Counted from the stretch's first letter, positions 13,979 to 32,392 are shown. The stretch is 64,000 nucleotides of DNA from Candidatus Poribacteria bacterium (GCA_965208325.1 OZ242326.1:2655363-2719362), one strand, 5' to 3'. Program-made: numbers and translations. Notes: generated by a model from the letters alone, not told the origin.

Positions 13979-14860
13979 ATGCACGGTAGTAGCACGATGC
14001 GTAAACCATTTGATTGGCTAATACAAATTCTTATGAAATTTGTCACTACGATTAGGTTAACTTTGTCGGTTTTGCTTTCAATCACGTTCGCAACCTGTGC
14101 TTCTGAGAAACCAGCCAGTCTTGATATAGAGATGATTCGTATTCCCGCGGGCGACTTCAAAATGGGAACTTCGCGCACGAATGAAACCGCGGATAGTAGT
14201 CCGCAGCACGTTGTTTTTCTCAATGCGTATCAAATCGGTAAATTTGAAATAACAAATCAGCAATACCACGAATTTATCATGGCGGGTGGATATAGAAAGC
14301 GAGAAGTTTGGACTCCTGAAGGTTGGAAATTTATAGTGCAAAATCAGATTGTTGCCCCCGCCGCCTGGAATCTGTTCGGATTTAACCACCCGAGTCAGCC
14401 TGCAGTTGGGATGTCTTGGCACGAAGCAGCCGCTTTTGCAAAATGGGCGGGAAAACGTCTGCCTACAGAAGCAGAATGGGAAAAAGCCGCCAGGGGAACC
14501 GACGGTAGAGCCTACCCCTGGGGGGAAGACATAAGTGTCACCGCTGTGTTTTACAACGCTTTGGTTCGACCGCAAACAGTTGGTAGTCACCCGGAGGGGA
14601 AAAGTCCCTTTGGACTTTACGATGTTGCCGGAAACGTATGGGAATGGGTACAAGATTGGTATGACCCAAATATTTATGAAAGAAGTTCATACGACAACTT
14701 AAATGGCCCCGTTCAAGGCGACCGCAAAGTAATGCGTGGGGGTGGCTGGGATTCAAATAGACGCCATTTGCAGTGTACCTACCGCCAGCGTGAAAAACCA
14801 ACGTGGCGGCGTCTGAACACCGGTTTTCGCGTGGCGGAAAACATCAATGAAGTGCGTTGA
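13979..14860 (+). CDS. formylglycine-generating enzyme (FGE-sulfatase/SUMF1) family protein
   Basis: MIRIPAGDFKMG, WHEAAAFAKWAGKRLPTEAEWEKAARGTDGR, GLYDVAGNVWEW and RGGGWDS motifs of PF03781. Alternative start possible at 13997. Confidence 0.85.
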   Translation: MHGSSTMRKPFDWLIQILMKFVTTIRLTLSVLLSITFATCASEKPASLDIEMIRIPAGDFKMGTSRTNETADSSPQHVVFLNAYQIGKFEITNQQYHEFIMAGGYRKREVWTPEGWKFIVQNQIVAPAAWNLFGFNHPSQPAVGMSWHEAAAFAKWAGKRLPTEAEWEKAARGTDGRAYPWGEDISVTAVFYNALVRPQTVGSHPEGKSPFGLYDVAGNVWEWVQDWYDPNIYERSSYDNLNGPVQGDRKVMRGGGWDSNRRHLQCTYRQREKPTWRRLNTGFRVAENINEVR

Positions 14861-17101: not shown

Positions 17102-17740
17102 ATGAACGTGTCATTGAGTTGTGCAATGATATTGGCAGTGATATTTGCTCTCGCCCTTGGGTGTGGGAACACTGACAACCCCGTTGCGGAAGACATTCAG
17201 GAACCTCCAACTGAGCCTCCACCCCATATCGTAGCGCCAATATTAGGAGAGTGGCATCTTATGGATATTATTTGGTACGTGGACGGAGTGGTTACGAACC
17301 AGAATAATACTACAGGATGGATTTACGGTGCAAACCCGAATATCCTAACATTCGCGCAAGATGGGATTTTCAATCTAACACAAAGATATCCCATACAAGA
17401 GGAATACTTAGAAATCCTTGAATGGAAAGGCAAGGGACATATCCAAGACGTTATAGTCACCTTTCGGGGAAAATATCGCATCAATGCGAATCAACTCTGG
17501 TTAAACCGGGTTGTAACTAGGGTGGAACCAAGGGAAGAAGCGCTCGCATACAGTCCCGAGTTTGGGAACCCCATATTTGTTTATGATTATTGGGCGCATA
17601 CCGATTTGGGCACGCACGGTAATCTACTACATTATTCTCTCGCTGACGATGGCAATCAACTGGAATTGAGAGCGGAAATAGTAAGCAAAAACGTTATGTA
17701 CGCAATGAATTTAATTCATCGCCGGCTAAAAAATGAGTGA
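17102..17740 (+). CDS. hypothetical lipoprotein (lipobox LALGCG)
   Basis: 212 aa with a signal peptide and Cys lipobox. Paralogous to the pseudogene at 18720-19290. Confidence 0.6.
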   Translation: MNVSLSCAMILAVIFALALGCGNTDNPVAEDIQEPPTEPPPHIVAPILGEWHLMDIIWYVDGVVTNQNNTTGWIYGANPNILTFAQDGIFNLTQRYPIQEEYLEILEWKGKGHIQDVIVTFRGKYRINANQLWLNRVVTRVEPREEALAYSPEFGNPIFVYDYWAHTDLGTHGNLLHYSLADDGNQLELRAEIVSKNVMYAMNLIHRRLKNE

Positions 17741-17923
17741 AAAAGGATATAAAACATTTGAGCATTAAAGGACGAACGCGAGCCGTCTGTCTCCACACTC
17801 GCAAAATCTACGTGATTGCGATCGATGTTGACGCCGAGGGGTTTAGTGTCAATTGGGTAAAGAAGAAACCAGGTGCAATCTTTGCATTTCTAGACTGAAA
17901 ATCTAATTGGGAGATGAGGTATT

Positions 17924-18676
17924 ATGCCAATTAAAACTTTCCGATTCATGATTGTATTCTTGGAAATCATTGTTGTGTTTGGACGATTGTGTACGGCGGG
18001 CACGTGGATAGACGATTTCAGTGACCCAACCCTTCGAGATTGGGGGGGCGGATTGTTAAATGACGAGGTTAGAGCAACTGTTGTTGATGGTCAATTTAAT
18101 TTCAGTGGAAAAAAACAAGGAGCAAATCATAGAATGACGAATTGGGAATTAGGGGAAATCCAAGATTTTTCGCTTGAGTTGAAGTTTATGGTTAGAAACG
18201 TCCGAAATCCAATGGATAGCGGTTGGTCGGTTCAATATACCGCCTTTAACGAAAAAACGATGGACTTGGAAGGGATAGCGGACTTTGGGTTTAGATATGC
18301 ACTAGGAGCTAATGTAGAACCTAATGTTGCGTTTGTAACGATTATTTGGCGGTTGCCGGCGAACAATCCACAAATCGGGAAGTTCAAGGAAATAGCCCGC
18401 TTTGCATACGAAAATGAGGTCTGGTACACGTTGAAGATTGAGCGCGAAGTGAACCGATACCATTTTTGGATTGGAAATATTGGTTTAATCACAGAGGATG
18501 ATTCTCTGACTAATGGTTCAATTGGGTTCCACTTTTATGGAAGGTGTAACATCTGGTTAGATGACTTAATTGTGACGGGTCACGATGTGCCCGATGGAGG
18601 GCCCGGCGTTTTGCAAGTCAAAGCCTTAGCAGAGAAATTAACGACTACCTGGGGAAAGCTGAAAGCACGGAACTGA
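17924..18676 (+). CDS. hypothetical secreted jelly-roll-like protein
   Basis: 250 aa with an N-terminal signal. Its 3' end is duplicated as a remnant at 16876-17060. Confidence 0.55.
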   Translation: MPIKTFRFMIVFLEIIVVFGRLCTAGTWIDDFSDPTLRDWGGGLLNDEVRATVVDGQFNFSGKKQGANHRMTNWELGEIQDFSLELKFMVRNVRNPMDSGWSVQYTAFNEKTMDLEGIADFGFRYALGANVEPNVAFVTIIWRLPANNPQIGKFKEIARFAYENEVWYTLKIEREVNRYHFWIGNIGLITEDDSLTNGSIGFHFYGRCNIWLDDLIVTGHDVPDGGPGVLQVKALAEKLTTTWGKLKARN

Positions 18677-19290: not shown

Positions 19291-19380
19291 GGTGAAATTC
19301 ATCCATCGTCGATCAGAAGCCGAATAGCATTTCAGTATTTTAGATAGAAACCAAGATTGCACCCGCGATTAAGAATATAC

Positions 19381-20409
19381 ATGGTGAAAGCATCAACGCA
19401 AATCTCTATCATCATTTCTGCGTTCAACGAAGCCCCAACCCTCAAATCTCTTTATCATCAGATTCGAGATGTGATGGGGATAATTGGGGCGCCATACGAG
19501 GTTATCTTCGTTGACGATGGCAGCACGGACGGTTCCTTCGGCATCATGCAGGAGCTTTATCGTCTCCATCAAGACTGGGCGTCCGCGCTGGCAGTTGCCC
19601 CAAGCCGTTCAATTCAAGAATTTGAGGAGAATCAAACCCACGCAACATCCCAAGTTATCGTCATCCAATTTCGACGCAATATGGGCAAGGCGACCGCTTT
19701 GGCAGCGGGGTTTGCGCGTGCAATAGGAAAAATTGTCATTACGATTGACGCCGATTTGCAAGATGACCCAAACGAAATTCCAAACTTGTTGGCAAAAATT
19801 GACGAAGGGTACGATGTTGTATCCGGTTGGAAAACCAATCGTCAAGATTCTTGGTCTAAAGTGTTGCTCTCAAGAATCTTTAATTGGGTGGTCTGTTTGT
19901 GTACGCATCTGGATCTCCACGACATCAACTGTGGATTCAAAGCCTATAGGCGCCGAGTAATTCGGGAACTCTTGGTGTACGGAGATCGACATCGGTTCCT
20001 GCCGATTTTAGCTCACCAACATGGCTTTCGGGTCACAGAAGTGCCCGTGAAACATCAGCGGCGACAGTACGGCAGATCGAAATATGGCTTTGAACGTATA
20101 CCCCGCGGCTTTTTGGATTTGTTGAGCATTCTCTTTCTCAACCGATACTTGAAACGCCCGCTCCACTTCTTTGGGGTACTGGGATTCTTATGCCTGATCA
20201 GCGGCACAGTAATTAACATTTACCTCACCGTATTGTGGTTTGTTCAAGATGGCATTGGGTTTCGTCCCCTGCTCATGTTGGGTATTTTGTTGATGATTTT
20301 AGGGCTGCAGTTTCTTTCCATCGGATTTTTGGGTGAGATGCTTACTAACGCCTTTGAGCGTTTAGATCGTCGCTACCCTATCGAAAGGGTGCTCGAACAA
20401 GAGGAATAA
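19381..20409 (+). CDS. GT2 polyprenol-phosphate glycosyltransferase (DPM1/ArnC/GtrB-like) with C-terminal TM helices
   Basis: ISIIISAFNEAPTL...VIFVDDGSTDGS...NMGKATALAAGFARAIGKIVITIDADLQDDP motifs, with 2-4 C-terminal TM segments. Confidence 0.85.
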   Translation: MVKASTQISIIISAFNEAPTLKSLYHQIRDVMGIIGAPYEVIFVDDGSTDGSFGIMQELYRLHQDWASALAVAPSRSIQEFEENQTHATSQVIVIQFRRNMGKATALAAGFARAIGKIVITIDADLQDDPNEIPNLLAKIDEGYDVVSGWKTNRQDSWSKVLLSRIFNWVVCLCTHLDLHDINCGFKAYRRRVIRELLVYGDRHRFLPILAHQHGFRVTEVPVKHQRRQYGRSKYGFERIPRGFLDLLSILFLNRYLKRPLHFFGVLGFLCLISGTVINIYLTVLWFVQDGIGFRPLLMLGILLMILGLQFLSIGFLGEMLTNAFERLDRRYPIERVLEQEE

Positions 20410-20418
20410 CACGAAAAC

Positions 20419-21393
20419 GTGATTTCCATCATTATCCCGACTTACAATCGAAAAGATGAACTCGAAGACTTACTCCCCTCGCTCAAGAATCAGAAGTGTT
20501 CGATCGCTTTTGAGGTTATTGTTGTGGATGACGGTTCGACGGACGGAACGCGAGAACTACTAAAGAAACTAGCCGAAGACTGGAATGGAAGATTGCGGTT
20601 TTTTGAGCAAAATCATGCTGGACCGGGGGCTGCTAGGAATCTGGGAATCAAACACGCTCAAGGCGATATCTTAGCTTTTACCGATTCAGATTGTATTGCA
20701 CCACGCGGATGGTTGAACAAGCTGACCTCGGTTTTCGACAACCCGCAAGTTGGAGCGGCTGGCGGCCCTGAGTTGGCACCAACCGATGATTGTTTGCCTC
20801 GAAGGTGCCAGAGTTACGTAATGACGGCATTTCTCACCACCGGCGGGCTGCGGGGAAGGAAGGGAAAGAAACTTGGAGTTTATTATCCGCGTGGATTTAA
20901 TATGGCTGTCCGAAAGCACGTCGTTGATGCGGTTGGAGGAGTTCCTAATCGATTCCAAGGGGAAGATATTCTCTTAAGTTTAAAAGTAAAGCAGATGGGT
21001 TACACCCTCGAATATGTGCCGGATGCAGCAGTTTATCATCACAGACGTGCAACGTTGAGCGGTTATTTTAGGCAACTTTACCGAATGGGAAAGGCGAGAG
21101 TCGAATTGGCTTATCTGCACAAATCCTTGTTGGAAGCGGTATACATGTTGCCTGCGCTCGTACTCCTAATTTCCATTTCGCTAAGCGTTGGCGCGTTTTT
21201 CTCTGAAACGCTTTTTAAGATTGCTGCAGGGGGAATGATAATAGCGTTAGTTTTTCTTACTGCCGTCGGTATTGATAGCACAATCCGTCTGAAAACGCTC
21301 AAGGCTTTTGGGATTGTGCCCTTTCTGTTTATCACACAACAGACAGCCTATGGGTTGGGAACCATCGTCGCTGCATTAAGGAAACAAGTATGA
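20419..21393 (+). CDS. GT2 family glycosyltransferase with C-terminal TM helices
   Basis: ISIIIPTYNRKDEL...VIVVDDGSTDGT...FTDSDC (DxD) motifs. Confidence 0.85.
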   Translation: MISIIIPTYNRKDELEDLLPSLKNQKCSIAFEVIVVDDGSTDGTRELLKKLAEDWNGRLRFFEQNHAGPGAARNLGIKHAQGDILAFTDSDCIAPRGWLNKLTSVFDNPQVGAAGGPELAPTDDCLPRRCQSYVMTAFLTTGGLRGRKGKKLGVYYPRGFNMAVRKHVVDAVGGVPNRFQGEDILLSLKVKQMGYTLEYVPDAAVYHHRRATLSGYFRQLYRMGKARVELAYLHKSLLEAVYMLPALVLLISISLSVGAFFSETLFKIAAGGMIIALVFLTAVGIDSTIRLKTLKAFGIVPFLFITQQTAYGLGTIVAALRKQV

Positions 21394-22307
21394 AGAAATT
21401 CTCCTTTCGAAGGGAAATTTTAGAAAACCATAATCGGTTGCAGGGCGGCACCCGCCTTGAGAGGAATTTCGATGTAAAACTCAATAGTGCCGATCCGCTT
21501 GTGAGCATTATTACGATTTGCCTTAACGCCGAAAAGACCATTGAACAATCCATCCAATCAGTAATTAACCAGACCTACAATCCCATCGAACACCTTATTA
21601 TTGATGGCGGCTCAACGGATTGTACCGTGGAAATCCTAAGAAAATACGATAACCGGATTGACTATTGGGTAAGTGAACCTGACGATGGGACCTCCGATGC
21701 GATAAACAAGGGAATACAGTCGAGCCGCGGCCAGCTGATTGGAATATTATGCGCCGATGACTTTTATGAAAGAAACGCAGTGGAAACCATTATCGGAAAG
21801 ATTTCAGCGGCAACACCTAAAATCTATCATGGCGATATAACGCGAATTGATGCCGATACAGGCGAGAAAACCTTCCTGCAAAAGCCGCCCGAAGACTTAG
21901 AAAAGTTGTTCCAAGGCTGTGCCGTAAATATACTCGCTACCTTTGTGGATCGGCGGATTTTCGAAAAACACGGTTTGTTTAGCGGCGACTATAAATTAGC
22001 CAACGACCACGAATTCCTACTGCGGACATTTACAGCGGGTGTGGAGTTCAGATACATCCCAAGGAATATTACCTTCATGCGTGAAGGTGGGAGGAGTCAA
22101 AAGCACTATATCCAGGCTTGCTGGGAATCTTTCAACTTGTCCATCCACTACGGTTGCCCGGTTCCGAAAGCCCTTTTTGTATTTCTCATCACCGTCCTGA
22201 AAAAGGCAGTTGAACGTAGAATTGCGAAGTGGTGTCCCTCTCTACTAAGACGATATGGTAGTTTAAGGTTTCTGTCGCTGAAAAATAGCACGTGGCATGG
22301 CAAATGA
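21390..22307 (+). CDS. GT2 family glycosyltransferase
   Basis: VSIITICLNAEKTIEQSIQSV...IIDGGSTD...ADDFY motifs. Overlaps the previous gene by 4 nt. Confidence 0.8.
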   Translation: MKKFSFRREILENHNRLQGGTRLERNFDVKLNSADPLVSIITICLNAEKTIEQSIQSVINQTYNPIEHLIIDGGSTDCTVEILRKYDNRIDYWVSEPDDGTSDAINKGIQSSRGQLIGILCADDFYERNAVETIIGKISAATPKIYHGDITRIDADTGEKTFLQKPPEDLEKLFQGCAVNILATFVDRRIFEKHGLFSGDYKLANDHEFLLRTFTAGVEFRYIPRNITFMREGGRSQKHYIQACWESFNLSIHYGCPVPKALFVFLITVLKKAVERRIAKWCPSLLRRYGSLRFLSLKNSTWHGK

Positions 22308-22359: not shown

Positions 22360-23295
22360 ATGACACATGTCCTAGTAACTGGCGGCGCCGGCTACATTGG
22401 CGCGGTTCTCTGCGAGCACCTTCTAGCTGAAGGCTACCGGGTAAGCGTCCTCGACAACCTAATGTACCGTCAGGGCAGCCTCTTTCACCTCTGCCTTCAT
22501 CCAGTCTTCGACTTCGTTAAGGGTGATGTCCGAGATGAAGAGCTCATGCGCCGCCTTGTGAAGAAAGCCGATGTGATCATCCCACTTGCAGCGGTCGTCG
22601 GTGCGCCCGCCTGCGATCGAGATCCGTGGCTGGCAAAATCAGTCAATTTGGAAGCAGTGCGGGCGCTAAATCGACTACGATCCTCCCAGCAATTGGTTAT
22701 TTTTCCAACGACTAACAGCGGCTACGGAACGCAGTCCGGCGAGACGTATTGCACTGAAGACACGCCGCTGCAGCCGATTTCGATCTACGGTCAGACAAAG
22801 TTGCACGCGGAGATGGAGATGCTGGACAGCCCCAACAGCATTTCCCTTCGTCTTGCAACAGTCTTCGGTATGTCGCCCCGTATGCGTATCGACTTGCTGG
22901 TGAACCATTTCGTCTATGCAGCGGTTACAGACGGCTATATCGTCATCTTTGAAAAGGATTTCAAGCGCAACTATCTCCACGTCCGCGATGCGGCGGATTG
23001 TTTTATTCACTGCATTGAGAACGCAACGCAGATGGTAGGACGCCCTTACAACGTGGGACTGGACGATGCGAATCTATCAAAGATGGAACTGGCGTTAAAG
23101 ATTAAGGAACACGTACCGAAATTTTATCTTCACTTTTCGGAGGTCGGCAGCGACCCTGACCAGCGCAACTACATCGTTTCCAACCAGCGGTTGCGTGACG
23201 CCGGATTTGAGGCGAAGCGTTCATTGGACGATGGGATAAAAGAGTTGCTGAAAGGGTACCGCATGATGGGACGGGCGCCTTTCAAGAATGCCTAA
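22360..23295 (+). CDS. NAD-dependent epimerase/dehydratase (extended SDR)
   Basis: VLVTGGAGYIG Rossmann motif and YGQTK (YxxxK). Confidence 0.85.
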   Translation: MTHVLVTGGAGYIGAVLCEHLLAEGYRVSVLDNLMYRQGSLFHLCLHPVFDFVKGDVRDEELMRRLVKKADVIIPLAAVVGAPACDRDPWLAKSVNLEAVRALNRLRSSQQLVIFPTTNSGYGTQSGETYCTEDTPLQPISIYGQTKLHAEMEMLDSPNSISLRLATVFGMSPRMRIDLLVNHFVYAAVTDGYIVIFEKDFKRNYLHVRDAADCFIHCIENATQMVGRPYNVGLDDANLSKMELALKIKEHVPKFYLHFSEVGSDPDQRNYIVSNQRLRDAGFEAKRSLDDGIKELLKGYRMMGRAPFKNA

Positions 23296-23313
23296 AAGGG
23301 ATAGAATCCCCTC

Positions 23314-23390
23314 TGACAAGGGGGGGTATCTGAATGTGTGTAAATGTAAATGGTCATATTTTAACGACTGATACCCGATGATAATCAGTA
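23314..23390 (+). repeat. approximately 70-bp direct repeat (copy 1) duplicating the 5' region/start of the GHMP-kinase gene; copy 2 at 23706-23778
   Basis: Copy 1 is gggggggtatctgaatgtgtgtaaatg(taaatg)gtcatattttaacgactgatacccgatgataatcag. Copy 2 is ggggggaatctgaatgtgtgtaaatggtgatattttaaggactgataaccgatgataattag. Confidence 0.85.
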
Positions 23391-23391
23391 T

Positions 23392-23679
23392 TTGTAGGTT
23401 GGGTTAAGCGGAGTAAATGAGAGACGCGAATAATGTCGAGTGGATATCGGTATTTGAATTCGTTCGGTGTTTTTCTAAATGTAGCGAACCCAACGCTTTT
23501 GGATATTGCGGGGCGTTTGGTTTATCGGGCGACGTGTGGTTAAGACTATCGCCTTCGCTATTCGCTCAGTTGATCGTTGGGTTACGCTCCCCACATCGGG
23601 TCTTGGACGTCGTTAGGCTTCCAGAGCGAAACGAAAAATTGTACATCATTTCGTGAAATTCGCTCAACCCAACCTACAA
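23392..23679. mobile_element. MITE-like non-autonomous element with 18-19 bp terminal inverted repeats (TTGTAGGTTGGGTTAAGCG ... GCTCAACCCAACCTACAAG)
   Basis: Imperfect TIRs at 23392-23410 and 23661-23679. Inserted between two copies of a 70-bp direct repeat. Carries an internal copy of the dispersed 40-bp repeat (23544-23576). The only ORF is 79 aa with no similarity. Confidence 0.6.
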
Positions 23680-23765
23680 GAAGCTTGACTTGTGAGTAAT
23701 AGCAAGCCTTATCAGGGGGGAATCTGAATGTGTGTAAATGGTGATATTTTAAGGACTGATAACCG

Positions 23766-24818
23766 ATGATAATTAGCAGAACCCCGTTTCGAATCTCATT
23801 CTTTGGCGGAGGGACAGACTATCCAGCGTGGTACCTGCAACACGGCGGTGCGGTGCTCGCCACTACAATTGACAAATACTGCTATCTCACATGTCGATAC
23901 CTCCCCCCGTTCTTCGAGCATCGTATCCGGATTGTCTATTCCCAGATAGAGAATTGCCAGAGCCTAGACGAGATTCGCCACCCCGCCGTCCGCGAAGGCT
24001 TACGGCATGTGAACCTCGACCGCGGCGTAGAGATTCATCATGATGGAGATTTGCCTGCACGAAGCGGAATTGGGTCTAGCTCCGCCTTCACGGTAGGGCT
24101 TTTGCATGCGCTGTACGCCCTCAAGGGTCAGATGTTAAGCAAGAGCCAACTGGCGGAAGAGAGCATTTATATTGAGCAGGAACAGCTCGAGGAGGCGGTT
24201 GGCTCTCAGGATCAGGTGCTCGCCGCTTATGGTGGGTTAAACCATATCTCTTTTTTTCAAAATGGCGAGTTCTCTATCGTCCCAATCACCGTTCCTCCAG
24301 AGCGTATACAGAATCTAAATTCCCATCTGATGCTGTTCTACACCGGCATCAAACGAACCGCATCGGATATCGCCCGCAGTTACGATATAGAGGGCAAGCA
24401 ACAGCAATTGCACATCATGAAGGATTTTGTGGAGGAAGGATTGCTGATTCTGAACAGCGATTCGGACATTACTGCCTTTGGAGAATTGTTGCACGAAGCA
24501 TGGCAGGTCAAGCGCACATTGAGTCCAACGGTCTCCAATTCACGTGTGGATGAACTTTACAATCGTGCACGTTCAGTGGGCGCCATCGGCGGCAAGCTGA
24601 CGGGTGCTGGCGGTGGCGGATTCATGCTGCTTTTTGTGCCGCCCAACAGACAAGAAGAGGTGAAGGAGACGTTCAGTAATCGAATCCATGTGCCGTTCAG
24701 ATTTGAATCATCTGGCAGCCAGATTATCTTTTTTAATCCCGAAGAGAATTATGCCGCTGAAGCGCAAGCGCGCGCTACAGAACCGATTCAACCTTTTCAA
24801 GAGTTAGGTCATCTTTAG
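23766..24818 (+). CDS. GHMP-family sugar kinase (D-glycero-D-manno-heptose 7-phosphate kinase HddA / fucokinase-like)
   Basis: N-terminal TPFRISFFGGGTDYP, the PARSGIGSSSAFTVGL ATP-binding motif, and GAGGGGF. Confidence 0.8.
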   Translation: MIISRTPFRISFFGGGTDYPAWYLQHGGAVLATTIDKYCYLTCRYLPPFFEHRIRIVYSQIENCQSLDEIRHPAVREGLRHVNLDRGVEIHHDGDLPARSGIGSSSAFTVGLLHALYALKGQMLSKSQLAEESIYIEQEQLEEAVGSQDQVLAAYGGLNHISFFQNGEFSIVPITVPPERIQNLNSHLMLFYTGIKRTASDIARSYDIEGKQQQLHIMKDFVEEGLLILNSDSDITAFGELLHEAWQVKRTLSPTVSNSRVDELYNRARSVGAIGGKLTGAGGGGFMLLFVPPNRQEEVKETFSNRIHVPFRFESSGSQIIFFNPEENYAAEAQARATEPIQPFQELGHL

Positions 24819-24890: not shown

Positions 24891-25898
24891 TTGAGCGAAA
24901 CTCGGACCATTCGCCGCGTCCTAATTACCGGAATTAGGGGTTCTGGCGGCAGTTACTTGGCGGAGTATATCGCCGCTAATCACCCAGATGTTGAAGTCCA
25001 CGGCATCTCCCGATGGCACAGCACTTCAACCGATAACCTTTCTGCCATCAAAGAACGAGTGACCCTCCATGAAGCCGACCTGATGGATTTTAGCTCGGTT
25101 TTGGCGGTATTGCAGGATTGTCAACCGGACGCCATCTTTCACCTAGCGGCGCACGCCAACGTGCGAACGTCATTTACGACACCAAACGCAGTTTTGAGCA
25201 ACAATGTATTGGGCACCAGCAATCTTTTCGAAGCGGTGAGGATGGCGCGGCTCGATCCTATTATTCAGTTGTGCAGTAGTTCAGAGGTATACGGTCTAGT
25301 GGATTCTGAGTCGGTGCCAATCACGGAAGATACGCCGTTGCGGCCGGTTAGTCCTTATGCGGTTTCGAAGGTAGCTCAAGATTTGTTGGGTTGGACCTAT
25401 TTCATCAGTTACAACATGCGCATTATACGCACGCGCATGTTCACCTATCTGAATCCGCGTCGCACCGACCTGTTTGCGACTGCATTTGCAAAGCAGGTTG
25501 CTTGGATTGAACGCGGGCTTCAGAAGGAACTGGTGCATGGCAACCTAGATTCGGTCCGCACCATCATTGATGCGCGGGATGCCATGCGGGCATATTGGGA
25601 AGCGATTTTGCGCTGCAAACCCGGCGAAGTCTACAACATTGGGGGCCCCACTTCTATGACGGTTGGCGAGTTTCTGGAACGTCTAGTTGTTTTGAGTGAC
25701 GTACCGATTCCAAGACGATGTGCGCCGCACTTGCTTCGACCGGCAGATGTGACGCTTCAAATTCCTTGCGTCGATAAATTTGTGCGGGAAACCGGATGGC
25801 AACCTGTACACACCTTTGAGGAAAGCCTTACGGAAATGCTCGCGTTTTGGCGGTGGGAAGCGGACAAGGCTGCGCACCAGGCTTCAGGAATGGGATAA
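24891..25898 (+). CDS. GDP-sugar 4,6-dehydratase (GMD/Rmd family)
   Basis: LITGIRGSGGSYLAEY, EVHGISR, SSSEVYG and PYAVSK (YxxxK) align with GDP-mannose 4,6-dehydratase. Confidence 0.8.
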   Translation: MSETRTIRRVLITGIRGSGGSYLAEYIAANHPDVEVHGISRWHSTSTDNLSAIKERVTLHEADLMDFSSVLAVLQDCQPDAIFHLAAHANVRTSFTTPNAVLSNNVLGTSNLFEAVRMARLDPIIQLCSSSEVYGLVDSESVPITEDTPLRPVSPYAVSKVAQDLLGWTYFISYNMRIIRTRMFTYLNPRRTDLFATAFAKQVAWIERGLQKELVHGNLDSVRTIIDARDAMRAYWEAILRCKPGEVYNIGGPTSMTVGEFLERLVVLSDVPIPRRCAPHLLRPADVTLQIPCVDKFVRETGWQPVHTFEESLTEMLAFWRWEADKAAHQASGMG

Positions 25899-25941: not shown

Positions 25942-26883
25942 ATGGTTGAGAATTTTTATCGTGCCCTGTACCGAATTCGACGGGTAGAGGAAGAAATCGC
26001 AAGAATTTACCCCGCCGACATAATCAAAAATCCCATCCATCTCTCAATCGGTCAAGAAGCTGTAGCTGTCGGCGTTTGCGAGGCGCTGCAACCGAGCGAC
26101 GTTGTTTTCGGCACCTACAGGAGCCATGCGCTCTACTTGGCGAAAGGCGGGAATTTGAACAAGATGATCGCGGAATTGTTCGGCAAGGTTACGGGATGCG
26201 CCAAGGGGAAGGGCGGGTCAATGCACCTGATTGACACTGCCGCCGGGGCCATGGGCACCTCCGCTGTTGTGGGGACGACCATTCCGCTAGCGGTCGGTTA
26301 TGCCTACGCCTTGAAGTTAGAGGGGAAAGACAGCATTGTTGCCAGCTTTTTCGGGGATGGTGCGGTTGAAGAAGGGGTTTTCCACGAGAGTCTGAACTTT
26401 GCAGCACTCAAGAGCGTGCCTATCCTCTTCATCTGTGAAAATAACGGCTTCGCCATCCATTCGCGTCAATCCGAACGCCAGCCGATGGACAACATCTGCG
26501 AACGTGCGCGCGTTTATGGGATGCCTGCGGAGCGAATTGAGGATAATGACATCTTCGAGATATACGAACGGGTAAAGCGTGCAAGCAGTGAAATTCAAAA
26601 TGGGAGGGAAGGTCCCAGACTCTTCGAGTGTATGACACATCGGTGGAGGGAACATGTGGGACCTAATGAAGACTTCGATGCAGGCTACCGATCCAGAAGC
26701 GAAGCGCAACCTTGGTTTGAAAGTGACCCGCTCAAATCCATCGGCGCGGGCATGGAACCCGTCCGGCGCGGACAAATTGAAGTGGACGTCGAGTCGGAAA
26801 TTTACGAGGCATTCGCATTTGCTGAAAATAGTCCGTTTCCCGATAAACACGAACTCTACACCGATGTGTTCACGGAGGGGTAG
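25942..26883 (+). CDS. thiamine-diphosphate-dependent dehydrogenase E1 component, alpha subunit
   Basis: GQEAVAVG, YRSHA, GKGGSMH, and the TPP-binding motif GDGAVEEGVFHESLNFAA...ICENNGFAI. Start at the Met at 25942. Confidence 0.85.
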   Translation: MVENFYRALYRIRRVEEEIARIYPADIIKNPIHLSIGQEAVAVGVCEALQPSDVVFGTYRSHALYLAKGGNLNKMIAELFGKVTGCAKGKGGSMHLIDTAAGAMGTSAVVGTTIPLAVGYAYALKLEGKDSIVASFFGDGAVEEGVFHESLNFAALKSVPILFICENNGFAIHSRQSERQPMDNICERARVYGMPAERIEDNDIFEIYERVKRASSEIQNGREGPRLFECMTHRWREHVGPNEDFDAGYRSRSEAQPWFESDPLKSIGAGMEPVRRGQIEVDVESEIYEAFAFAENSPFPDKHELYTDVFTEG

Positions 26884-26884
26884 C

Positions 26885-27952
26885 ATGGCGCGTACGTTGA
26901 CATACGCCGAAGCGATTCGAGAAGCCACTAAAAACGAGATGGCGCGAGATTCGTCGGTCATGGTGCTGGGCATCGGTGTCGACGATTTCAATGGTGTTTA
27001 CGGTACCACAACGGGGCTGGTTGAGAAATTCGGAACTGACCGCGTTGTGGATACGCCGCTGTCTGAGGACGCCATGACGGGTGTTGCCATTGGCGCCGCG
27101 CTTGCCGGATTGCGGCCGATTCACGTCCATATCCGCATGGACTTTCTGCTTTTAGCCATGAATCAACTGGTGAACATCGCCGCTAAAAGCCGGTATATGT
27201 ACGGCGGCGCGGTCTGTGTGCCCATCGTGGTTCGTGCCATTATTGGCAGAAGTTGGGGACAAGGGGCGCAGCACTCGCAAGGACTTCACTCATTCTTTAT
27301 GCACGTTCCGGGGCTCAAAGTGGTTGCTCCCAGCACACCCTACGACGCAAAAGGTTGCCTGATTCAGAGTGTCCGGGACGATAATCCGGTGGTGTTTGTC
27401 GAGCACCGCCTGATTCACTATCAGAAAGGGCATGTGCCGGAATCTGACTACACTGTGCCCTTCGGTCAAGCGCGGGTGCTGTCAGAAGGGGGTGACATTA
27501 CACTCGTCGGTATTTCACATATGGCTGCGGAGTGCCTACGTGCTAAACGATACCTCCATGAAATGGGTCTCCGCGCTGAAGTCATAGACCCGGTGTCTTT
27601 AAGCCCCTTAGACATAGATACGATTGTCTCCTCTGTTGAAAAAACCGGGAAACTCCTCGTCGTTGACACCGCCTGGACAACCTGCGGCGCAAGCGCGGAA
27701 ATTATAGTGCAGGTCACAGAGCAGCTAGGCAGTGCAAAAACGGAATGCCGCCGGATGGGATTTGCGCCCGTGACCTGTCCAACCACAAAAAATCTGGAGA
27801 ACCACTTTTACCCGGATGCACAGAAGATAGCAACTGTGGCGTACCGCATGGTTAACGGAGACCGCGCATCTACGGTTGTCGATAGAAATCCCGATTTCTC
27901 AATACCAACTGAGGATTCATCAGAGTCCGTCGAGTTCAGGGGACCTTTCTAA
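26885..27952 (+). CDS. thiamine-diphosphate-dependent dehydrogenase E1 component, beta subunit (transketolase-like C-terminal half)
   Basis: MARTLTYAEAIREA...VMVLGIGVDDFNGVYGTT...DTPLSEDAMTGVAIGAALAGLRP. Start adjacent to the alpha-subunit stop. Confidence 0.85.
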   Translation: MARTLTYAEAIREATKNEMARDSSVMVLGIGVDDFNGVYGTTTGLVEKFGTDRVVDTPLSEDAMTGVAIGAALAGLRPIHVHIRMDFLLLAMNQLVNIAAKSRYMYGGAVCVPIVVRAIIGRSWGQGAQHSQGLHSFFMHVPGLKVVAPSTPYDAKGCLIQSVRDDNPVVFVEHRLIHYQKGHVPESDYTVPFGQARVLSEGGDITLVGISHMAAECLRAKRYLHEMGLRAEVIDPVSLSPLDIDTIVSSVEKTGKLLVVDTAWTTCGASAEIIVQVTEQLGSAKTECRRMGFAPVTCPTTKNLENHFYPDAQKIATVAYRMVNGDRASTVVDRNPDFSIPTEDSSESVEFRGPF

Positions 27953-29127
27953 TGGGAAGACAATACCGGCTTGCCGAACAGACCATTGACGAGGAAGACC
28001 TCCAGGACCTCATCGCGTGGTTAAAGACCAACCCTTGGTTGACCCAGGGAGAAATGGTGCGCGAATTTGAGCGTCTATGGTCAGACTGGCTTGGTGTCAA
28101 GTACGCAACCTTTGTCAATTCCGGCTCTTCCGCCAACCTGTTGATGTACGACGCCGTCTTGTTGTCGGGGAAGTTGCCCAACAAGAAGATTGTCCTCGCC
28201 GCCGTCAGTTGGTCAACCTCCGTTGCACCGGCAATTCAACTCGGCTTTGAGCCGATTTTATGCGAAGCGGACGAAAATACCTTTGGGCTAGATTTGGACT
28301 GTCTGGAACGGCTTTTGAAAGCACATCATCCGGGCGCGGTTCTCATTGTTCATACGCTCGGTGTGCCGAATGACATGGAACCGCTTCTAGCGCTCAAAGA
28401 TCGGTACGGGTTTATCCTGATGGAGGATGCTTGCGCAGCAATTGGATCCTGTTATGACAATCAACCTGTTGGCACCTTCGGGGAGATTAGCACCTTCTCT
28501 TTCTATTACGGTCACCACCTGTCTACAATAGAGGGCGGGATGGTTTGCACGCACGATGAAGCGATTCACGACATTTTGGTTCAGATTCGGAGCCACGGCT
28601 GGGCTAAGGATCTCCCTCCTGAGAAAGCGGAGAAGAGAGCCCGTGAGAACAGCATCATTGCGTTCAATCGCCCATTCACCTTCTACTATCCGGGCTACAA
28701 CCTGAGGTCAACGGATTTGAACGCGCGAATCGGTTTGTCGCAGATGAACAAGATAGATTACGTTGTGAAACGGCGAATCGAAAATCACAACGTCTACCAG
28801 TCGCGGTTTCAAAGCGCAACAGATTTTCATTGCCAACGAAATGACCGTGCAACCATCTGCAGCATTGCCTTCGTGGTTTTGGCTCAATCGCAAGCGCACC
28901 GGGAGAGAATTGCTCACGTCCTTAAAGAATACAAGATTGAGACGAGGCCGCTAGGTGGAGGCAACATGTCACGCCAGCCCTTTTGGGCGAATTGTTATGA
29001 TAGCACCGCTTTTCCCGTTGCTGACCGAATTCACGAGACGGCTTTTCAACTGCCGAATCATCCCAGGCTCAGCCGAGAAGATATCCATTTCATATGCGAC
29101 ACGGTGCTTTCGGTTACAACGGCATAA
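27952..29127 (+). CDS. DegT/DnrJ/EryC1-family PLP enzyme of the sugar 3-dehydratase type (ColD / CDP-6-deoxy-hexulose-3-dehydrase E1-like; catalytic Lys replaced by His)
   Basis: DegT-family fold. The active-site segment reads STFSFYYGHHLSTIEGGMV, with His188/His189 where aminotransferases carry Lys. This is the hallmark of ColD and E1 3-dehydratases. Start overlaps the upstream stop (TAATG). Confidence 0.75.
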   Translation: MGRQYRLAEQTIDEEDLQDLIAWLKTNPWLTQGEMVREFERLWSDWLGVKYATFVNSGSSANLLMYDAVLLSGKLPNKKIVLAAVSWSTSVAPAIQLGFEPILCEADENTFGLDLDCLERLLKAHHPGAVLIVHTLGVPNDMEPLLALKDRYGFILMEDACAAIGSCYDNQPVGTFGEISTFSFYYGHHLSTIEGGMVCTHDEAIHDILVQIRSHGWAKDLPPEKAEKRARENSIIAFNRPFTFYYPGYNLRSTDLNARIGLSQMNKIDYVVKRRIENHNVYQSRFQSATDFHCQRNDRATICSIAFVVLAQSQAHRERIAHVLKEYKIETRPLGGGNMSRQPFWANCYDSTAFPVADRIHETAFQLPNHPRLSREDIHFICDTVLSVTTA

Positions 29128-29342: not shown

Positions 29343-30866
29343 ATGAAGGATCGAACTATCAAAAACAACGAGCAACTCGATCTAGTATTGGTAAATCCGG
29401 GGAGCCAACGGAAAATCTACCAATCACTCGCATCTACTCTAACCGCTGTTGAACCTCCCGTTTGGGTGGGGCTGCTGGCGACTTTTGTCCGCAATCAAGG
29501 GTTTTCCGTTGCCATCGTTGATGCCAATGCGGAAAACCTAACGCCTGAAGAGACCGCCGAACGAGTCGCCGAGATGAATCCGGTGTTGACAGGGGTCGTT
29601 GTATATGGACACCAACCATCCGCATCGACCCAGAACATGACCGCCGCTGGGGCGATATGCACAGCAGTCAAAAAGCGGTCACCAGCGCTGAAAGTCCTTC
29701 TGGTAGGCGGTCATGCTGCCGCCCTGCCCGAACGAACCCTCAAAGAGGAAACTGCCGACTTTGTTTGCGGCGGGGAAGGGCCCTTCACGGTTATAGAACT
29801 CTTGCAAACGCTCAAATCTGCTCGGAGGGACTATCACATAGTCCGAGGGTTGTGGTATCGGGACAACAATCGTACAATCAAAACAACACCGGCTGCGCCG
29901 CTGGTTAAAGACCTCGACCGTGAAATGCCGTCAATGGCTTGGGACCTTCTACCTATGGAGAAATACCGCGCCCACAACTGGCACTGCTTTGGCGGCCTTG
30001 ACCGAAAACCGTACGCGGCAATCTATACAACTTTGGGATGTCCCTATCATTGCAGTTTCTGCTGCATCCAAGCTCCGTTCAAGAGCGGAGAACAAGCATT
30101 GGGATACAAAACCCGCGTCAACAGCTATCGGTTCTGGCACCCGGATTCCGTCATCGCCCAGATTGACACACTTGTTAAAGATTACGGGGTACGGAACATC
30201 AAAATTGCCGATGAGATGTTCGTGCTCAACCCCAGACATGTGACGGGAATCTGCAACCGGATTATCGAACGTGGATATAACCTGAACATTTGGGCATACG
30301 CCCGAGTGGACACCGTGAAAGCGGAGATGGTGGATGTGCTGAAGCGTGCCGGTTTCAACTGGCTTGCGTTTGGTATAGAGGCTGCCAGCGAGCGCGTGCG
30401 GGACGAAGTGCAGAAAGGGTTTAATCAACAGGACATATACCGGACCCTCGAAGCGGTTAGAGACGCTGGTATCAACGTCATCGGAAATTATATCTTTGGC
30501 TTGCCCGAAGACAATCTGGAATCAATGCAGGCAACTCTAGACCTCGCCCTCGAACTCAATTGTGAGTTCGCCAACTTTTACTGCGCCATGGCGTATCCGG
30601 GTTCCCAACTCTACAACCACGCTTTAGACGCGGGGTGGCCGTTGCCGGCAGAATGGAGCGGCTTTTCTCAACACGCGCCAAACACGCTGCCGCTGCCGAC
30701 GAAGTATCTGTCTGCGTCAGAGGTCTTGCGTTTCCGTGACCACGCTTTTCAAGTGTATTTCAACAGTTCAAAATATCTGGAAATGATTACCGAAAAGTTT
30801 GGTACAGAGACAACAAGTCACATTCGTGAGATGGCGAGTCATAAGCTGGTGCGGCAGTATGCATAG
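29343..30866 (+). CDS. B12-binding-domain radical SAM enzyme (class B radical SAM, probable sugar C-methyltransferase/rearrangement enzyme)
   Basis: N-terminal cobalamin-binding Rossmann-like domain (PPVWVGLLATFVRNQGFSVAIVDANAE) and the radical-SAM Cys box GCPYHCSFCC. Confidence 0.8.
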   Translation: MKDRTIKNNEQLDLVLVNPGSQRKIYQSLASTLTAVEPPVWVGLLATFVRNQGFSVAIVDANAENLTPEETAERVAEMNPVLTGVVVYGHQPSASTQNMTAAGAICTAVKKRSPALKVLLVGGHAAALPERTLKEETADFVCGGEGPFTVIELLQTLKSARRDYHIVRGLWYRDNNRTIKTTPAAPLVKDLDREMPSMAWDLLPMEKYRAHNWHCFGGLDRKPYAAIYTTLGCPYHCSFCCIQAPFKSGEQALGYKTRVNSYRFWHPDSVIAQIDTLVKDYGVRNIKIADEMFVLNPRHVTGICNRIIERGYNLNIWAYARVDTVKAEMVDVLKRAGFNWLAFGIEAASERVRDEVQKGFNQQDIYRTLEAVRDAGINVIGNYIFGLPEDNLESMQATLDLALELNCEFANFYCAMAYPGSQLYNHALDAGWPLPAEWSGFSQHAPNTLPLPTKYLSASEVLRFRDHAFQVYFNSSKYLEMITEKFGTETTSHIREMASHKLVRQYA

Positions 30867-30880: not shown

Positions 30881-32392
30881 ATGCCTCAAACACTCAAACT
30901 ACATGGCCGCTTGTTGGTCAAAAATACGAGCCTCAATTTCGGGGCGAAGGTGCTGCCCCTTGTTGCAATGGGGGTCACGATTCCGTATGTGATTGAAGGT
31001 TTGGGAACGGCGCGTTACGGGATTTTCACACTCATCTGGGCTGTCATAGGTTATTTCAGCGTCCTTGATTTGGGTTTGGGGAAAGCGACCGCAAAGAAGG
31101 TCGCGGAAGCGATCGGCAGAGGGGAAAGCGCCTCGATTCCGTCTATTGCGTGGACGGCTGTCGTACTTACACTGGGTTTAGGGTTAATTGCAAGCTTCAC
31201 CCTCATGGCGTTCACATCGCTTCTGGTGAACAATGTCTTTCAGGTGGATGCCAACTTGAGCGAAGAGACCCAACAGGTCTTCTACCTTGCTGCGGTCGGT
31301 CTGCTCATCGCACTGGTCAAATCTGCGCTTACCGGGGTGTTGGAGGCGCATCAGCGGTTCGATTTAATCAACCTGGTGGGCGTTCCTTCAAGCTTGCTTT
31401 CCGCGGTTATCCCACCTTTTGTTCTTTATGCAGATGGCGGGCTGCCCGCTATCGTTAGTCTGCTCGTTATCAAAAACGGTTTCGAGCTATTCGTTTTGTC
31501 TTTCCTCTGGTTGAAGGTGTTGCCGTCAGGAGACCGCTTCTTTTCGCTAGATGTGAAAATGAGCCCCGCCCTTTTTTCGTTTGGAGGGTGGTTGACGCTG
31601 CACAACGTCGCGAGTTATATTCTACAATACGTTGAGCGGTTCCTAATTGGCGCGCTCTTGACAATTACAGCGGTCACCTATTACGGCGTTCCTTTCACCC
31701 TCATCAGTGCGTTGACGGTTCTTCCTTCGAGCCTGATGCCTGTCCTCTTTCCCGCTTTTAGCGCCCTTCACCATTCAGATGTCACGAGATTAGAAAATCT
31801 TTTCCGGCGGGCACTGAAATATCTCGTCGTATTGATGGGGCTAGCGGCGACGTTTCTGATGATATTTTCGGAGGAAATCTTGGTATTGTGGATTGGCGAG
31901 GATGGTATCAGAAGCATCAATGTACTTCAGTTCCTCGCTGTGGGATACGTGCTCTCGGTTGTTTCATGGTATTTCAGCACGTTCCTGCAAGGGACGGGCT
32001 ATATTAAAGCGGTGACGGCAATTGCGCTGGCGTTCTTGGCTTTTCAGGTTCCATTCTCATGGGCGTTAATCACGGTGTGGGGAATCGAGGGCGCGGCTTT
32101 GGCGTTCACATTCAGCCGGGCGCTGGTGGTTTTGGTATTCTACTGTACCGCTCGAAGGTTAAATCTGATACATCCTTTGCGGGTGTCCATCGGTAAACTG
32201 GCAAAACTCACCTGCGGGTTTTTGATTATCATTTCAGCAACGGTGTTGCTCAAAATAGTTGTAGGCATACTTCCGTGGTCTATCATTCTGAGCGCCCCTG
32301 TATTCATTGCAAGCACCCTCCTGTTTGGCTGGTATGCCATTCTCACCCATGAGGACAAACGCATGGTGTTGCAGTCGGTAAAGCGAGTCTGA
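30881..32392 (+). CDS. Wzx-type oligosaccharide flippase (MOP/PST family)
   Basis: 503 aa, about 14 TM helices, PST-family N-terminus (NFGAKVLPLVAMGVTIPYVIEGLGTARYGIF). Confidence 0.8.
   Translation: MPQTLKLHGRLLVKNTSLNFGAKVLPLVAMGVTIPYVIEGLGTARYGIFTLIWAVIGYFSVLDLGLGKATAKKVAEAIGRGESASIPSIAWTAVVLTLGLGLIASFTLMAFTSLLVNNVFQVDANLSEETQQVFYLAAVGLLIALVKSALTGVLEAHQRFDLINLVGVPSSLLSAVIPPFVLYADGGLPAIVSLLVIKNGFELFVLSFLWLKVLPSGDRFFSLDVKMSPALFSFGGWLTLHNVASYILQYVERFLIGALLTITAVTYYGVPFTLISALTVLPSSLMPVLFPAFSALHHSDVTRLENLFRRALKYLVVLMGLAATFLMIFSEEILVLWIGEDGIRSINVLQFLAVGYVLSVVSWYFSTFLQGTGYIKAVTAIALAFLAFQVPFSWALITVWGIEGAALAFTFSRALVVLVFYCTARRLNLIHPLRVSIGKLAKLTCGFLIIISATVLLKIVVGILPWSIILSAPVFIASTLLFGWYAILTHEDKRMVLQSVKRV

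Follow-up and report, generated by a model that had tools for sequence, protein, structure and literature searches.

What does a pair of genes resembling the alpha and beta subunits of a 2-oxo-acid dehydrogenase E1 do inside a surface-glycan operon? The question is raised by a stretch of 64,000 nucleotides from Candidatus Poribacteria bacterium (GCA_965208325.1 OZ242326.1:2655363-2719362), the whole of which is referred to here as the window. It carries two adjacent genes for a thiamine diphosphate (ThDP)-dependent E1-alpha and E1-beta. The analysis confirmed that the pair is intact, tightly packed, and part of a surface-glycan operon, and that the 64-kb window contains no E2/E3 genes. The comparative evidence indicates that the pair most likely puts a two-carbon branch on an activated heptose bound for the cell surface.

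The E1-Alpha/E1-Beta Gene Pair

Both genes are located on the plus strand and are intact. The E1-alpha gene extends from the ATG at 25942 to the TAG at 26883 (313 aa), and the E1-beta gene from the ATG at 26885 to the TAA at 27952 (355 aa). The start of E1-alpha was assigned to 25942 because the homologues are all 311-319 aa long and have an MVENFY-type N-terminus; a longer open reading frame (ORF) with a TTG start at 25780 was set aside. The alpha stop and the beta start are one base apart, with a GGAGGGG Shine-Dalgarno sequence upstream of beta. The TAA of E1-beta (27950-27952) shares one nucleotide with the ATG (27952-27954) of the next gene, which codes for a DegT-family protein. The same 1-nt overlap was present in the gene calls of five related loci (L001, L002, L006, L093, and L094). 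This conserved stop/start overlap suggests co-translation of E1-beta and the putative dehydratase, possibly with hand-over of a labile keto-sugar. On the other side, 43 nt separate E1-alpha from the upstream short-chain dehydrogenase/reductase (SDR) gene (24891-25898), without overlap.

The protein families were determined with Pfam. E1-alpha belongs to PF00676 (E1_dh, 1.9e-58), and E1-beta is composed of PF02779 (Transket_pyr, 2.5e-33) and PF02780 (Transketolase_C, 2.8e-27). E1-alpha contains the ThDP motif GDG(138-140)-X26-NN(167-168). Its His238 is the equivalent of human alpha-His263, and in E1-beta Glu61 and His130 are the equivalents of the cofactor-activating Glu59 and of beta-His128. 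The pair has the fold and the ThDP motif of a heterotetrameric 2-oxo-acid dehydrogenase E1. Its scores against the NCBIfam pyruvate dehydrogenase (PDH) models, with cut-offs at the equivalog and subfamily level, were below the cut-off for both subunits: 289.2 bits for E1-alpha against TIGR03182 (cut-off 393.85) and 303.6 bits for E1-beta against NF006667 (cut-off 321). The PGAP (Prokaryotic Genome Annotation Pipeline) label for the beta subunit is only "transketolase C-terminal domain-containing protein".

The original prediction, made from the sequence before this analysis, had placed the pair at 25942-27952, and gene calls and homologue lengths agree with this to the base. The thiamine pyrophosphate (TPP) and heterotetramer motifs and the TAATG overlap that it described were also found. 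It described the pair as packed between two dehydratase genes: the downstream gene, which codes for a predicted ColD-type 3-dehydratase, overlaps with E1-beta, and the upstream SDR gene shows no overlap.

The pair belongs to one long glycan operon on the plus strand, which extends from a GT-C glycosyltransferase gene (14957) to a Wzx flippase gene (32392). Downstream of the operon, the housekeeping genes rpe, fmt, def, and lspA are located on the opposite strand. Pattern scans for promoters and terminators across the operon gave results no better than shuffled controls, and Rfam at gathering thresholds gave no match in the window; TPP and cobalamin riboswitches are among the families not found.

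E2/E3 Partners and Phylogeny of Related Loci

Pfam scans of 42 large ORFs of the window (at least 150 aa; 59129-61405 and two ORFs at 17102-18676 were left out) revealed no lipoyl, 2-oxoacid_dh, E3-binding, or Pyr_redox domains. A six-frame tblastn search with Escherichia coli AceF and Lpd against the whole 64-kb window gave no match at E ≤ 1e-3.

Relatives of E1-alpha number in the thousands; the best 120 cluster representatives are 68-100% identical to it, and the closest named homologue (89% identity) comes from a Candidatus Poribacteria metagenome-assembled genome (MAG). One genome per species was scanned, and 80 loci from named genomes were kept. The window proteins, together with E. coli AceF and Lpd, were mapped by tblastn onto each locus with a context of ±8 kb. 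The clade counts rest on this map because ORF clustering of the high-GC loci carried opposite-strand shadow ORFs. Three groups were distinguished: a heptose sub-clade (H, 32 loci), another sugar-linked clade (S, 29 loci), and a dehydrogenase clade (D, 20 loci). At an E1-alpha identity of at least 53%, the pair was accompanied by a DegT gene, an HddA-like kinase, a Cj1427-like SDR, and often a radical S-adenosylmethionine (rSAM) enzyme, and never by E2/E3. At 41-50%, a class that includes Pelagibacter, Prochlorococcus, Microcoleus, an Akkermansia MAG, and Catenovulum, it was found with other SDR and DegT sugar genes, again never with E2/E3. At 38-42%, E1-alpha and E1-beta were followed by E2 and sometimes E3. 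Within ±8 kb, E2/E3 genes were detected in 0/32 H, 0/29 S, and 13/20 D loci (Fisher test, H vs. D, p = 1.2e-7).

The DegT gene was present in 29/32 H loci, usually downstream of the pair, in 9/29 S loci, and in no D locus (0/20). The HddA-like kinase (at least 45% identity) was found in 24 of the 32 H loci and in neither the 29 S nor the 20 D loci. A Cj1427-like SDR (at least 45% identity) was present in 18/32 H loci and a cobalamin (B12)-binding rSAM enzyme in 14/32. The HH motif of 3-dehydratases was observed in all 26 readable H-clade DegT proteins (29 loci had a DegT match), notwithstanding their identity of 31-88% to the window protein. The H clade covers more than 10 phyla, including Planctomycetota, Myxococcota, Chloroflexota, Acidobacteriota, Lentisphaerae, Saccharibacteria, and Poribacteria, and it also includes Alpha- and Gammaproteobacteria.

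A neighbour-joining, distance-based tree of 82 E1-alpha sequences, with human PDHA1 as reference, separated the E2/E3-linked from the sugar-linked proteins with a bootstrap of 97/100, and the heptose sub-clade was recovered at 83/100. The tree of the E1-beta core, with the C-terminal tail removed, gave the same split (99/100). Human PDHA1 and PDHB, Geobacillus PdhB, and the E2-linked bacterial E1s were all located on the E2/E3-linked side.

In fuller cassettes, genes for NTP_transferase, HAD, SIS, GHMP kinase, SDR, E1-alpha, E1-beta, DegT, and B12-rSAM proteins were found together. In close relatives, the E1-alpha/beta-dehydratase cassette occurs as two or three paralogs within one genome, all of them in glycan loci (L006 and L093 on the same contig, and L094; proteins P0005, P0011, P0007, P0014, and P0027). 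The site syntenic with the window ranges from a full 12-gene version (L093) to a minimal set of E1-alpha, E1-beta, dehydratase, and Wzx (L094), and in this the locus resembles a hypervariable surface-glycan island. Judging from the recurring overlap and from the genes kept in the minimal L094 locus, the E1 pair and the putative dehydratase are the functional core of the cassette. Outside Poribacteria, the Cj1427-like and the 4,6-dehydratase-like SDRs replace each other, as expected of alternative routes to a 4-keto sugar; in L003, L022, and L024, the window-type 4,6-dehydratase-like SDR is present and the Cj1427-like SDR is absent. In most loci, the gene directly 5' of E1-alpha codes for a GDP (guanosine diphosphate)-fucose-synthase-like SDR (7LL6, 3e-87), of which the window has no copy. 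The upstream SDR of the window was considered as the counterpart of this gene and rejected, as it has no detectable similarity to the GDP-fucose-synthase-like protein.

Two further loci were noted. The Solidesulfovibrio magneticus RS-1 plasmid pDMC1 (L092; NC_012797.1 18458-39432) carries a related cassette with rSAM, NUDIX, kinase, E1-alpha, E1-beta, GDP-fucose-synthase-like, DegT, Cj1427-like, nucleotidyltransferase, and GT-C genes. A gene for an L-2-hydroxyglutarate oxidase is included as well, and this enzyme would recycle what a Cj1427-type dehydrogenase forms as a by-product; this fits the ping-pong use of alpha-ketoglutarate by Cj1427, because that reaction yields L-2-hydroxyglutarate (PMC10680097). 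The E1-beta of this plasmid has 45% identity and lacks the C-terminal F-x-G-P-F tail described below, which suggests that an E1 pair was recruited a second time and independently. In Candidatus Pelagibacter sp. Uisw_136 (SAR11; L049; NZ_CP159812.1 145878-162825), an S-clade E1-alpha/beta pair was found with the heptose genes SIS, GHMP kinase, Cj1427-like, and 4,6-dehydratase-like and with an HH-type 3-dehydratase; the locus codes for another split Transket_pyr/Transketolase_C protein as well.

Clade-Specific Sequence Features

The C-termini of the beta subunits were compared across clades (loci L008-L065, L089, L090, and L091). The E1-beta proteins of the sugar-linked clades are about 30 residues longer and end with F-(K/R/T)-G-P-F. 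Each position of the F-x-G-P-F motif is kept at 97% in the H clade and at 83-90% in the S clade, where D-(V/I)-P-(D/G) precedes it. The motif was found in 0/21 beta sequences of the E2/E3 clade, among them those of Geobacillus and human PDH-beta. In the alpha subunit, the Ser next to the active-site His (human Ser264) is replaced by Val in the H clade and by Cys in the S clade. Further clade-specific substitutions were located in the ThDP pocket (alpha Y59, A63, A108, T112, and V239; beta H80, N93, and C158). The clade-specific beta tail and the Ser replacement in alpha mark a functionally distinct lineage.

In the plasmid collection, E1 pairs of Streptomyces were found to be unrelated and to lie in contexts resembling those of polyketide synthases or nonribosomal peptide synthetases. 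The beta subunits encoded by pSGRIFU1 and pSALBX2 end with G-F-(A/I)-G-P-Y, and their genes adjoin those for a condensation-domain protein, an acyl carrier protein, and a ketosynthase, not sugar genes. Given these termini, the tail may mark non-classical E1 pairs more generally.

Proposed Function

We consider it probable that the pair encodes an alpha2beta2-type ThDP carboligase that acts independently of E2 and attaches an acetyl group derived from pyruvate at C4 of a GDP-3-deoxy- or GDP-3,6-dideoxy-4-keto-heptose. This agrees with the original prediction in several respects. It had proposed a sugar-tailoring enzyme without E2/E3 partners nearby, not a dehydrogenase complex; the searches of the window, the phylogeny, in which the sugar clade stands apart from the E2/E3-linked E1s, and the gene context support this. 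The outcome went against the refutation named in the prediction itself, a clustering with PDH or acetoin E1 together with cognate E2/E3 genes. Of the two chemistries it had left side by side, acyloin formation with a 2-oxo acid donor is favoured over transketolase activity because the closest relatives are pyruvate-decarboxylating E1s. The sugar is more likely a heptose.

According to this proposal, the pair would have left the 2-oxo-acid dehydrogenase complexes and would work alone on a nucleotide sugar. GDP-heptose would be made with the help of GmhA, GmhB, and HddC, presumably encoded elsewhere in this genome and in the cassette in other phyla. The 4-keto group would be introduced by the Cj1427-like C4-dehydrogenase (6-hydroxy product), the heptose 4,6-dehydratase (6-deoxy product), or both. 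The ColD-type enzyme, dependent on pyridoxamine 5'-phosphate (PMP), would then strip the 3-hydroxyl to give GDP-3-deoxy- or GDP-3,6-dideoxy-4-keto-heptose. E1-alpha/beta would decarboxylate a 2-oxo acid, most likely pyruvate, and the resulting hydroxyethyl-ThDP carbanion would attack the C4 ketone to yield a 4-C-acetyl tertiary alcohol. In other loci, the GDP-fucose-synthase-like SDR probably reduces the acetyl to a 1-hydroxyethyl group, and the B12-rSAM enzyme, where present, would elaborate the product. Finally, the sugar would be transferred to polyprenyl phosphate (ArnC-like glycosyltransferase), flipped (Wzx), and attached to a surface acceptor by the GT-C enzyme.

The chemistry has precedents. 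The Raushel group obtained GDP-D-glycero-3-deoxy-4-keto-heptose in vitro with Cj1427 and a C3-dehydratase, and GDP-3,6-dideoxy-4-keto-heptose by combining the 4,6-dehydratase with the C3-dehydratase; Cj1427 uses alpha-ketoglutarate in a ping-pong reaction that yields L-2-hydroxyglutarate (PMC10680097). YerE transfers a pyruvate-derived acetyl group onto CDP (cytidine diphosphate)-3,6-dideoxy-4-keto-glucose, itself the product of a 3-dehydrase (PMC9306805). Because the GDP-keto-heptoses directly parallel the YerE acceptor, E1-alpha/beta may be regarded as carrying out the branching in what would be a heptose counterpart of the yersiniose pathway.

A broader proposal is more tentative, with somewhat less than an even chance in our estimation: the pair may belong to a previously unrecognised multi-phylum lineage of E2-independent E1-alpha/beta carboligases, recognizable by the F-x-G-P-F tail, that makes sugars unseen in glycans. 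These would be 4-C-acetyl and 4-C-hydroxyethyl 3-deoxy- and 3,6-dideoxy-heptoses, i.e., branched nine-carbon sugars, rSAM-modified in about half of the loci. Full-text literature searches (heptose with thiamine, branching, E1 in glycan clusters) retrieved no description of the heptose-linked clade. If the proposal is true, such sugars occur on the surfaces of sponge-symbiont Poribacteria, Planctomycetota, Myxococcota, and Azospirillum, enzymes of the sister clade do likewise in SAR11, Prochlorococcus, and others, and the division between YerE in Gram-negatives and AviB-type enzymes in actinomycetes is wrong.

Several points weigh against the proposed reaction. The window is without GmhA, GmhB, HddC, or an obvious branch ketoreductase, and for this reason the nucleotide sugar was deduced from homologous loci and best hits. 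We know of no 4-C-branched heptose reported from any glycan, and the literature searches found none in glycans. Both His residues used in lipoyl reductive acetylation are kept in the pair, so the sequence still allows an E2 partner in trans, which the comparative evidence makes very unlikely. The trees were computed without AviB1/B2, Pau11/12, and Coxiella CBU_0692/0693. The order in which the dehydratase would act before E1 follows the yersiniose precedent. As to pyruvate as the donor, relatives of YerE take C4-C8 donors (PMC9306805). More generally, the functional readings come from comparative genomics, i.e., from homology, synteny, and precedent.

Alternative Explanations

An ordinary pyruvate, acetoin, or branched-chain dehydrogenase E1, with E2/E3 encoded elsewhere and a place in the glycan operon due to chance, is hardly credible. 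The best named matches of the pair are PDH E1 alpha and beta, the catalytic His residues for lipoyl acetylation are conserved, and the E2/E3 search of this genome covered the 64-kb window and not the remainder. These points have to be set against the scores of both subunits below the NCBIfam PDH cut-offs, the separate clade at 97-99% bootstrap, and the synteny with 3-dehydratase and heptose genes, which is kept across more than 10 phyla with E2/E3 in 0/32 versus 13/20 loci. The stop/start overlap with the dehydratase recurs in related loci, the extra C-terminal tail occurs in no E2-linked beta subunit, and the paralogous copies in relatives, two or three to a genome, all lie in glycan loci. 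Also distinctly improbable is the idea that the pair branches the keto-sugar only after its transfer to a glycan or a carrier lipid. Such timing has been proposed for AviB1/B2 and Pau11/12 (PMC4425429), and the window has three family-2 glycosyltransferase (GT2) genes and a polyprenyl-phosphate route. Translation of the pair is, however, coupled to that of a cytoplasmic nucleotide-sugar enzyme, the pair sits between nucleotide-sugar enzymes, YerE works on a CDP-sugar (PMC9306805), and no glycosyltransferase stands between dehydratase and flippase in the minimal cassette.

A ThDP enzyme of the sugar pathway that catalyzes something other than 4-C-acetylation of a 3-deoxy-4-keto intermediate is unlikely, and it could take three forms. 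Another donor (hydroxypyruvate, 2-oxobutyrate, 2-oxoglutarate, or a longer hydroxy-keto acid) would make the branch longer or functionalised; branching could be the earlier step, after which the HH-type PMP enzyme would act on the branch carbonyl and remove the tertiary 4-OH; or a ketose could be the donor of a transketolase-like transfer. The YerE-family enzymes ErwE and MyGE use C4-C8 donors and reject pyruvate or use it poorly, but no aldolase or donor-making gene is conserved in the present cassette, unlike in the erwiniose cluster (PMC9306805). Alpha-ketoglutarate, made by the dehydratase, is used by Cj1427 in the same pathway (PMC10680097), and the ThDP pocket carries the clade-specific substitutions listed above; the nearest characterised relatives are nevertheless pyruvate-specific E1s. 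The gene order E1-alpha, E1-beta, DegT is compatible with either order of reactions, but in the precedent pathways 3-deoxygenation goes ahead of branching. We retain C4 acetylation of the deoxygenated keto-heptose as the preferred reading.

Neighbouring Genes

The features of the operon are listed in Table 1. The sugar substrate is most likely GDP-heptose rather than a hexose, as indicated by the homologies of the genes around the pair.

Table 1. Features of the glycan operon, with the matches on which each assignment is based
Feature	Position	Strand	Basis
GT-C type PMT_2/ArnT-like polyprenyl-phosphate-dependent glycosyltransferase	14957-16831	+	PF13231 PMT_2 2.5e-12
ArnC-like GT2	19357-20409	+	NF007986 2.1e-58, below its cut-off
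Family-2 glycosyltransferase	20419-21393	+	PF00535 6.6e-35
Family-2 glycosyltransferase	21390-22307	+	PF00535 7.8e-25
Cj1427-like SDR	22360-23295	+	PDB 6VO6 7.9e-107 over 306 residues
HddA-like GHMP kinase	23766-24818	+	PF00288, PF08544; NF049969 HddA best NCBIfam match 2.6e-40, below cut-off
SDR, 4,6-dehydratase-like	24891-25898	+	PDB 7US5 2.3e-55; Rmd reductase 2PK3 2e-54
ThDP-dependent E1-alpha-like subunit	25942-26883	+	PF00676 1.9e-58; GDG-X26-NN at 138-168; H clade
E1-beta-like subunit	26885-27952	+	PF02779 + PF02780; Glu61, His130 conserved; clade split 99/100
E1-beta C-terminal tail, ~30 aa, clade-specific, end E-F-R-G-P-F	27860-27949	+	Motif comparison across clades
Predicted ColD-type PMP-dependent nucleoside diphosphate (NDP)-4-keto-sugar 3-dehydratase (DegT family)	27952-29127	+	PDB 2GMS 1.9e-56
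Cobalamin-binding radical-SAM enzyme	29343-30866	+	PF02310, PF04055; best NCBIfam HpnJ, BchE, far below cut-off
Wzx/MOP-family flippase	30881-32392	+	PF13440, PF01943, MatE; kept in minimal L094 cassette

The DegT protein is, by its sequence, a ColD-type PMP-dependent 3-dehydratase, because His188 replaces the Schiff-base Lys of aminotransferases and the protein lacks the Cys-rich Fe-S insert of E1/DdhC. Aligned with 2GMS and with the H188N and H188K mutants, it has His188 at the position of this Lys, which is the replacement typical of 3-dehydratases of the ColD and E1(DdhC) type, and the residue is conserved in FSFYYGHHLSTIEGG. The best solved relatives of the protein are ColD and CDP-4-keto-6-deoxyglucose 3-dehydrase E1 (1.3e-48).

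The SDR at 22360-23295 is probably a GDP-heptose C4-dehydrogenase and the maker of the 4-keto group. It shows Cj1427-type homology through its match to 6VO6, which we take to be Cj1427, reportedly from Huddleston et al. 2020. For the SDR directly upstream of E1-alpha, a function as GDP-heptose 4,6-dehydratase is probable: 7US5 is the enzyme of this kind from Campylobacter jejuni. The name GDP-sugar dehydratase, used in the original prediction, is likely and not certain, because the Rmd structure 2PK3 scores almost as well, and an Rmd-like 4-reductase is the alternative.

In other H-clade loci, the HddA-like kinase is flanked by SIS, HAD, and NTP_transferase genes. A tblastn search with these three proteins from L001 and L003 against the window found nothing, so that one of the four genes of the GDP-heptose activation set (the kinase) is present here, and all four in L001, L002, and L003. 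Between the Cj1427-like SDR and the kinase, a non-coding gap of 470 nt (23296-23765) interrupts the operon; a similar gap of ~320 nt is found at the same place in L093. The gap contains no Rfam family and no promoter or terminator above chance, and no remnants of GmhA, GmhB, HddC, or the GDP-fucose-synthase-like SDR were detected in it or in the rest of the window.

The GT-C enzyme probably carries out the last transfer of the modified sugar. In L006, L093, and L094, the same family is represented upstream of the cassette, and the homologue on S. magneticus pDMC1 is annotated as a phospholipid carrier-dependent glycosyltransferase. NF007986 is the model of undecaprenyl-phosphate 4-deoxy-4-formamido-L-arabinose transferase, and the ArnC-like GT2 is probably a polyprenyl-phosphate sugar synthase. 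The two GT2 genes that follow it are syntenic in L006 and L093. The B12-rSAM enzyme would have an accessory tailoring role, probably C-methylation.

Other Features of the Window

Five WD40-repeat proteins of 581-828 aa are encoded in the window, one at 227-1972 and four in tandem at 52155-61405 between two TonB-dependent receptors; the repeats were scanned in 227-1972, 52155-54401, 54293-56779, and 56888-59119, and 59129-61405 was assigned by its position. Arrays of such repeats typify the "eukaryote-like" proteins known from Poribacteria, in agreement with the closest named homologue. At 9284-13668, two DUF1573/HYDIN-type Ig-domain proteins are encoded, one of which carries a fused C39 peptidase domain; next comes an FGE-sulfatase-family protein (13979-14860). 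The same trio stands ahead of the L094 glycan locus.

Implications

Genome annotation treats genes of this kind as pyruvate dehydrogenase, and in this analysis the whole clade would be glycan-tailoring machinery. The lack of E2/E3 nearby, together with a beta subunit ending in F-x-G-P-F, provides a simple marker for it. Coxiella CBU_0692/0693, located in the lipopolysaccharide O-antigen region cbu0664-cbu0704, were read as horizontally acquired pyruvate dehydrogenases for acetyl-CoA and fatty-acid metabolism (PMC5423948); by analogy, they may be sugar-tailoring enzymes instead. The predicted branched heptoses would be on the surfaces of bacteria abundant in the environment and in symbioses, where they would have a bearing on recognition by phages and hosts. 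An E1-type scaffold for carboligation that forms tertiary alcohols would also be of use, as this reaction is sought in biocatalysis (PMC12247030, PMC9306805). The proposal is testable, since the substrates are enzymatically accessible (PMC10680097) and cultured carriers exist, namely Azospirillum lipoferum 4B (plasmid AZO_p6) and Niveispirillum lacus.

Comparison with Known Systems

The fold, the GDG-X26-NN motif, the beta Glu, and the two His residues are shared with PDHA1/PDHB, Geobacillus PdhA/PdhB, and AcoA/AcoB at an identity of 38-45%. Unlike the E1s of known complexes, the pair has no E2/E3 genes, falls in a separate clade, scores below the cut-offs, and has an N-terminally shorter alpha subunit, Val in place of Ser by the active-site His, and a 30-residue beta tail ending with F-x-G-P-F.

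PDH-E1-like pairs to which two-carbon branching is assigned are AviB1/B2 (avilamycin), Pau11/Pau12 = Plm8/Plm9 (paulomycin), and EvdU5/EvdS3 (everninomicin) (PMC4425429, PMC4753412, PMC10338323). Knockout of pau11 abolishes paulomycin production, and the other assignments were made by analogy; in the cited literature, none of the three pairs was reconstituted. The window pair resembles AviB1/B2 in its gene context: a split E1-alpha/E1-beta without E2/E3 lies within a deoxysugar pathway, next to 4-keto-sugar enzymes (PMC4425429). Pyruvate as the proposed donor and a C4 acetyl branch as the proposed product are also common to both. The AviB type, however, is concerned with TDP (thymidine diphosphate) or UDP (uridine diphosphate) sugars derived from hexoses or pentoses, in secondary metabolites of Actinomycetota and with a proposed timing after glycosyl transfer, whereas the clade of the window is found in a probable GDP-heptose surface-glycan cassette of Gram-negative and candidate phyla and has a ColD-type 3-dehydratase as partner.

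The proposed pathway is similar to that of YerE/YerF for yersiniose A, and of ErwE and MyGE, in its sequence of 4,6-dehydration, PMP-dependent 3-deoxygenation, ThDP-dependent acyl addition at C4, and ketoreduction (PMC9306805, PMC4753412). In both cases the product is a sugar of a surface polysaccharide. YerE is a single-chain flavoprotein of the acetolactate-synthase type that acts on a CDP-hexose, whereas the window pair is of the E1 alpha2beta2 type with a probable GDP-heptose substrate; it is a non-homologous replacement of YerE. No YerE-type polypeptide with TPP_enzyme_N/M/C domains was found in the window: there is a weak sub-threshold TPP_enzyme_C match inside E1-alpha and no acetolactate-synthase-type protein. 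According to the literature, Gram-negatives use YerE and Gram-positives the AviB type (PMC4753412), a division which the heptose-linked clade would contradict.

The acceptor side is known from the tailoring of GDP-heptose in C. jejuni by Cj1427, by the 4,6-dehydratase, and by the HS:5 C3-dehydratase. The two SDRs and the DegT protein of the window are homologues of these enzymes, whose combined products in vitro are exactly the proposed acceptors (PMC10680097). C. jejuni next epimerises and reduces C4. Neither a ThDP enzyme nor a branched heptose is known there, and the words "thiamine" and "branched" are absent from the text of PMC10680097. Taken together, the E1-like sugar-branching enzyme is a kind already known, and what is new is the heptose-linked multi-phylum clade, its sequence marker, and the predicted branched sugars.

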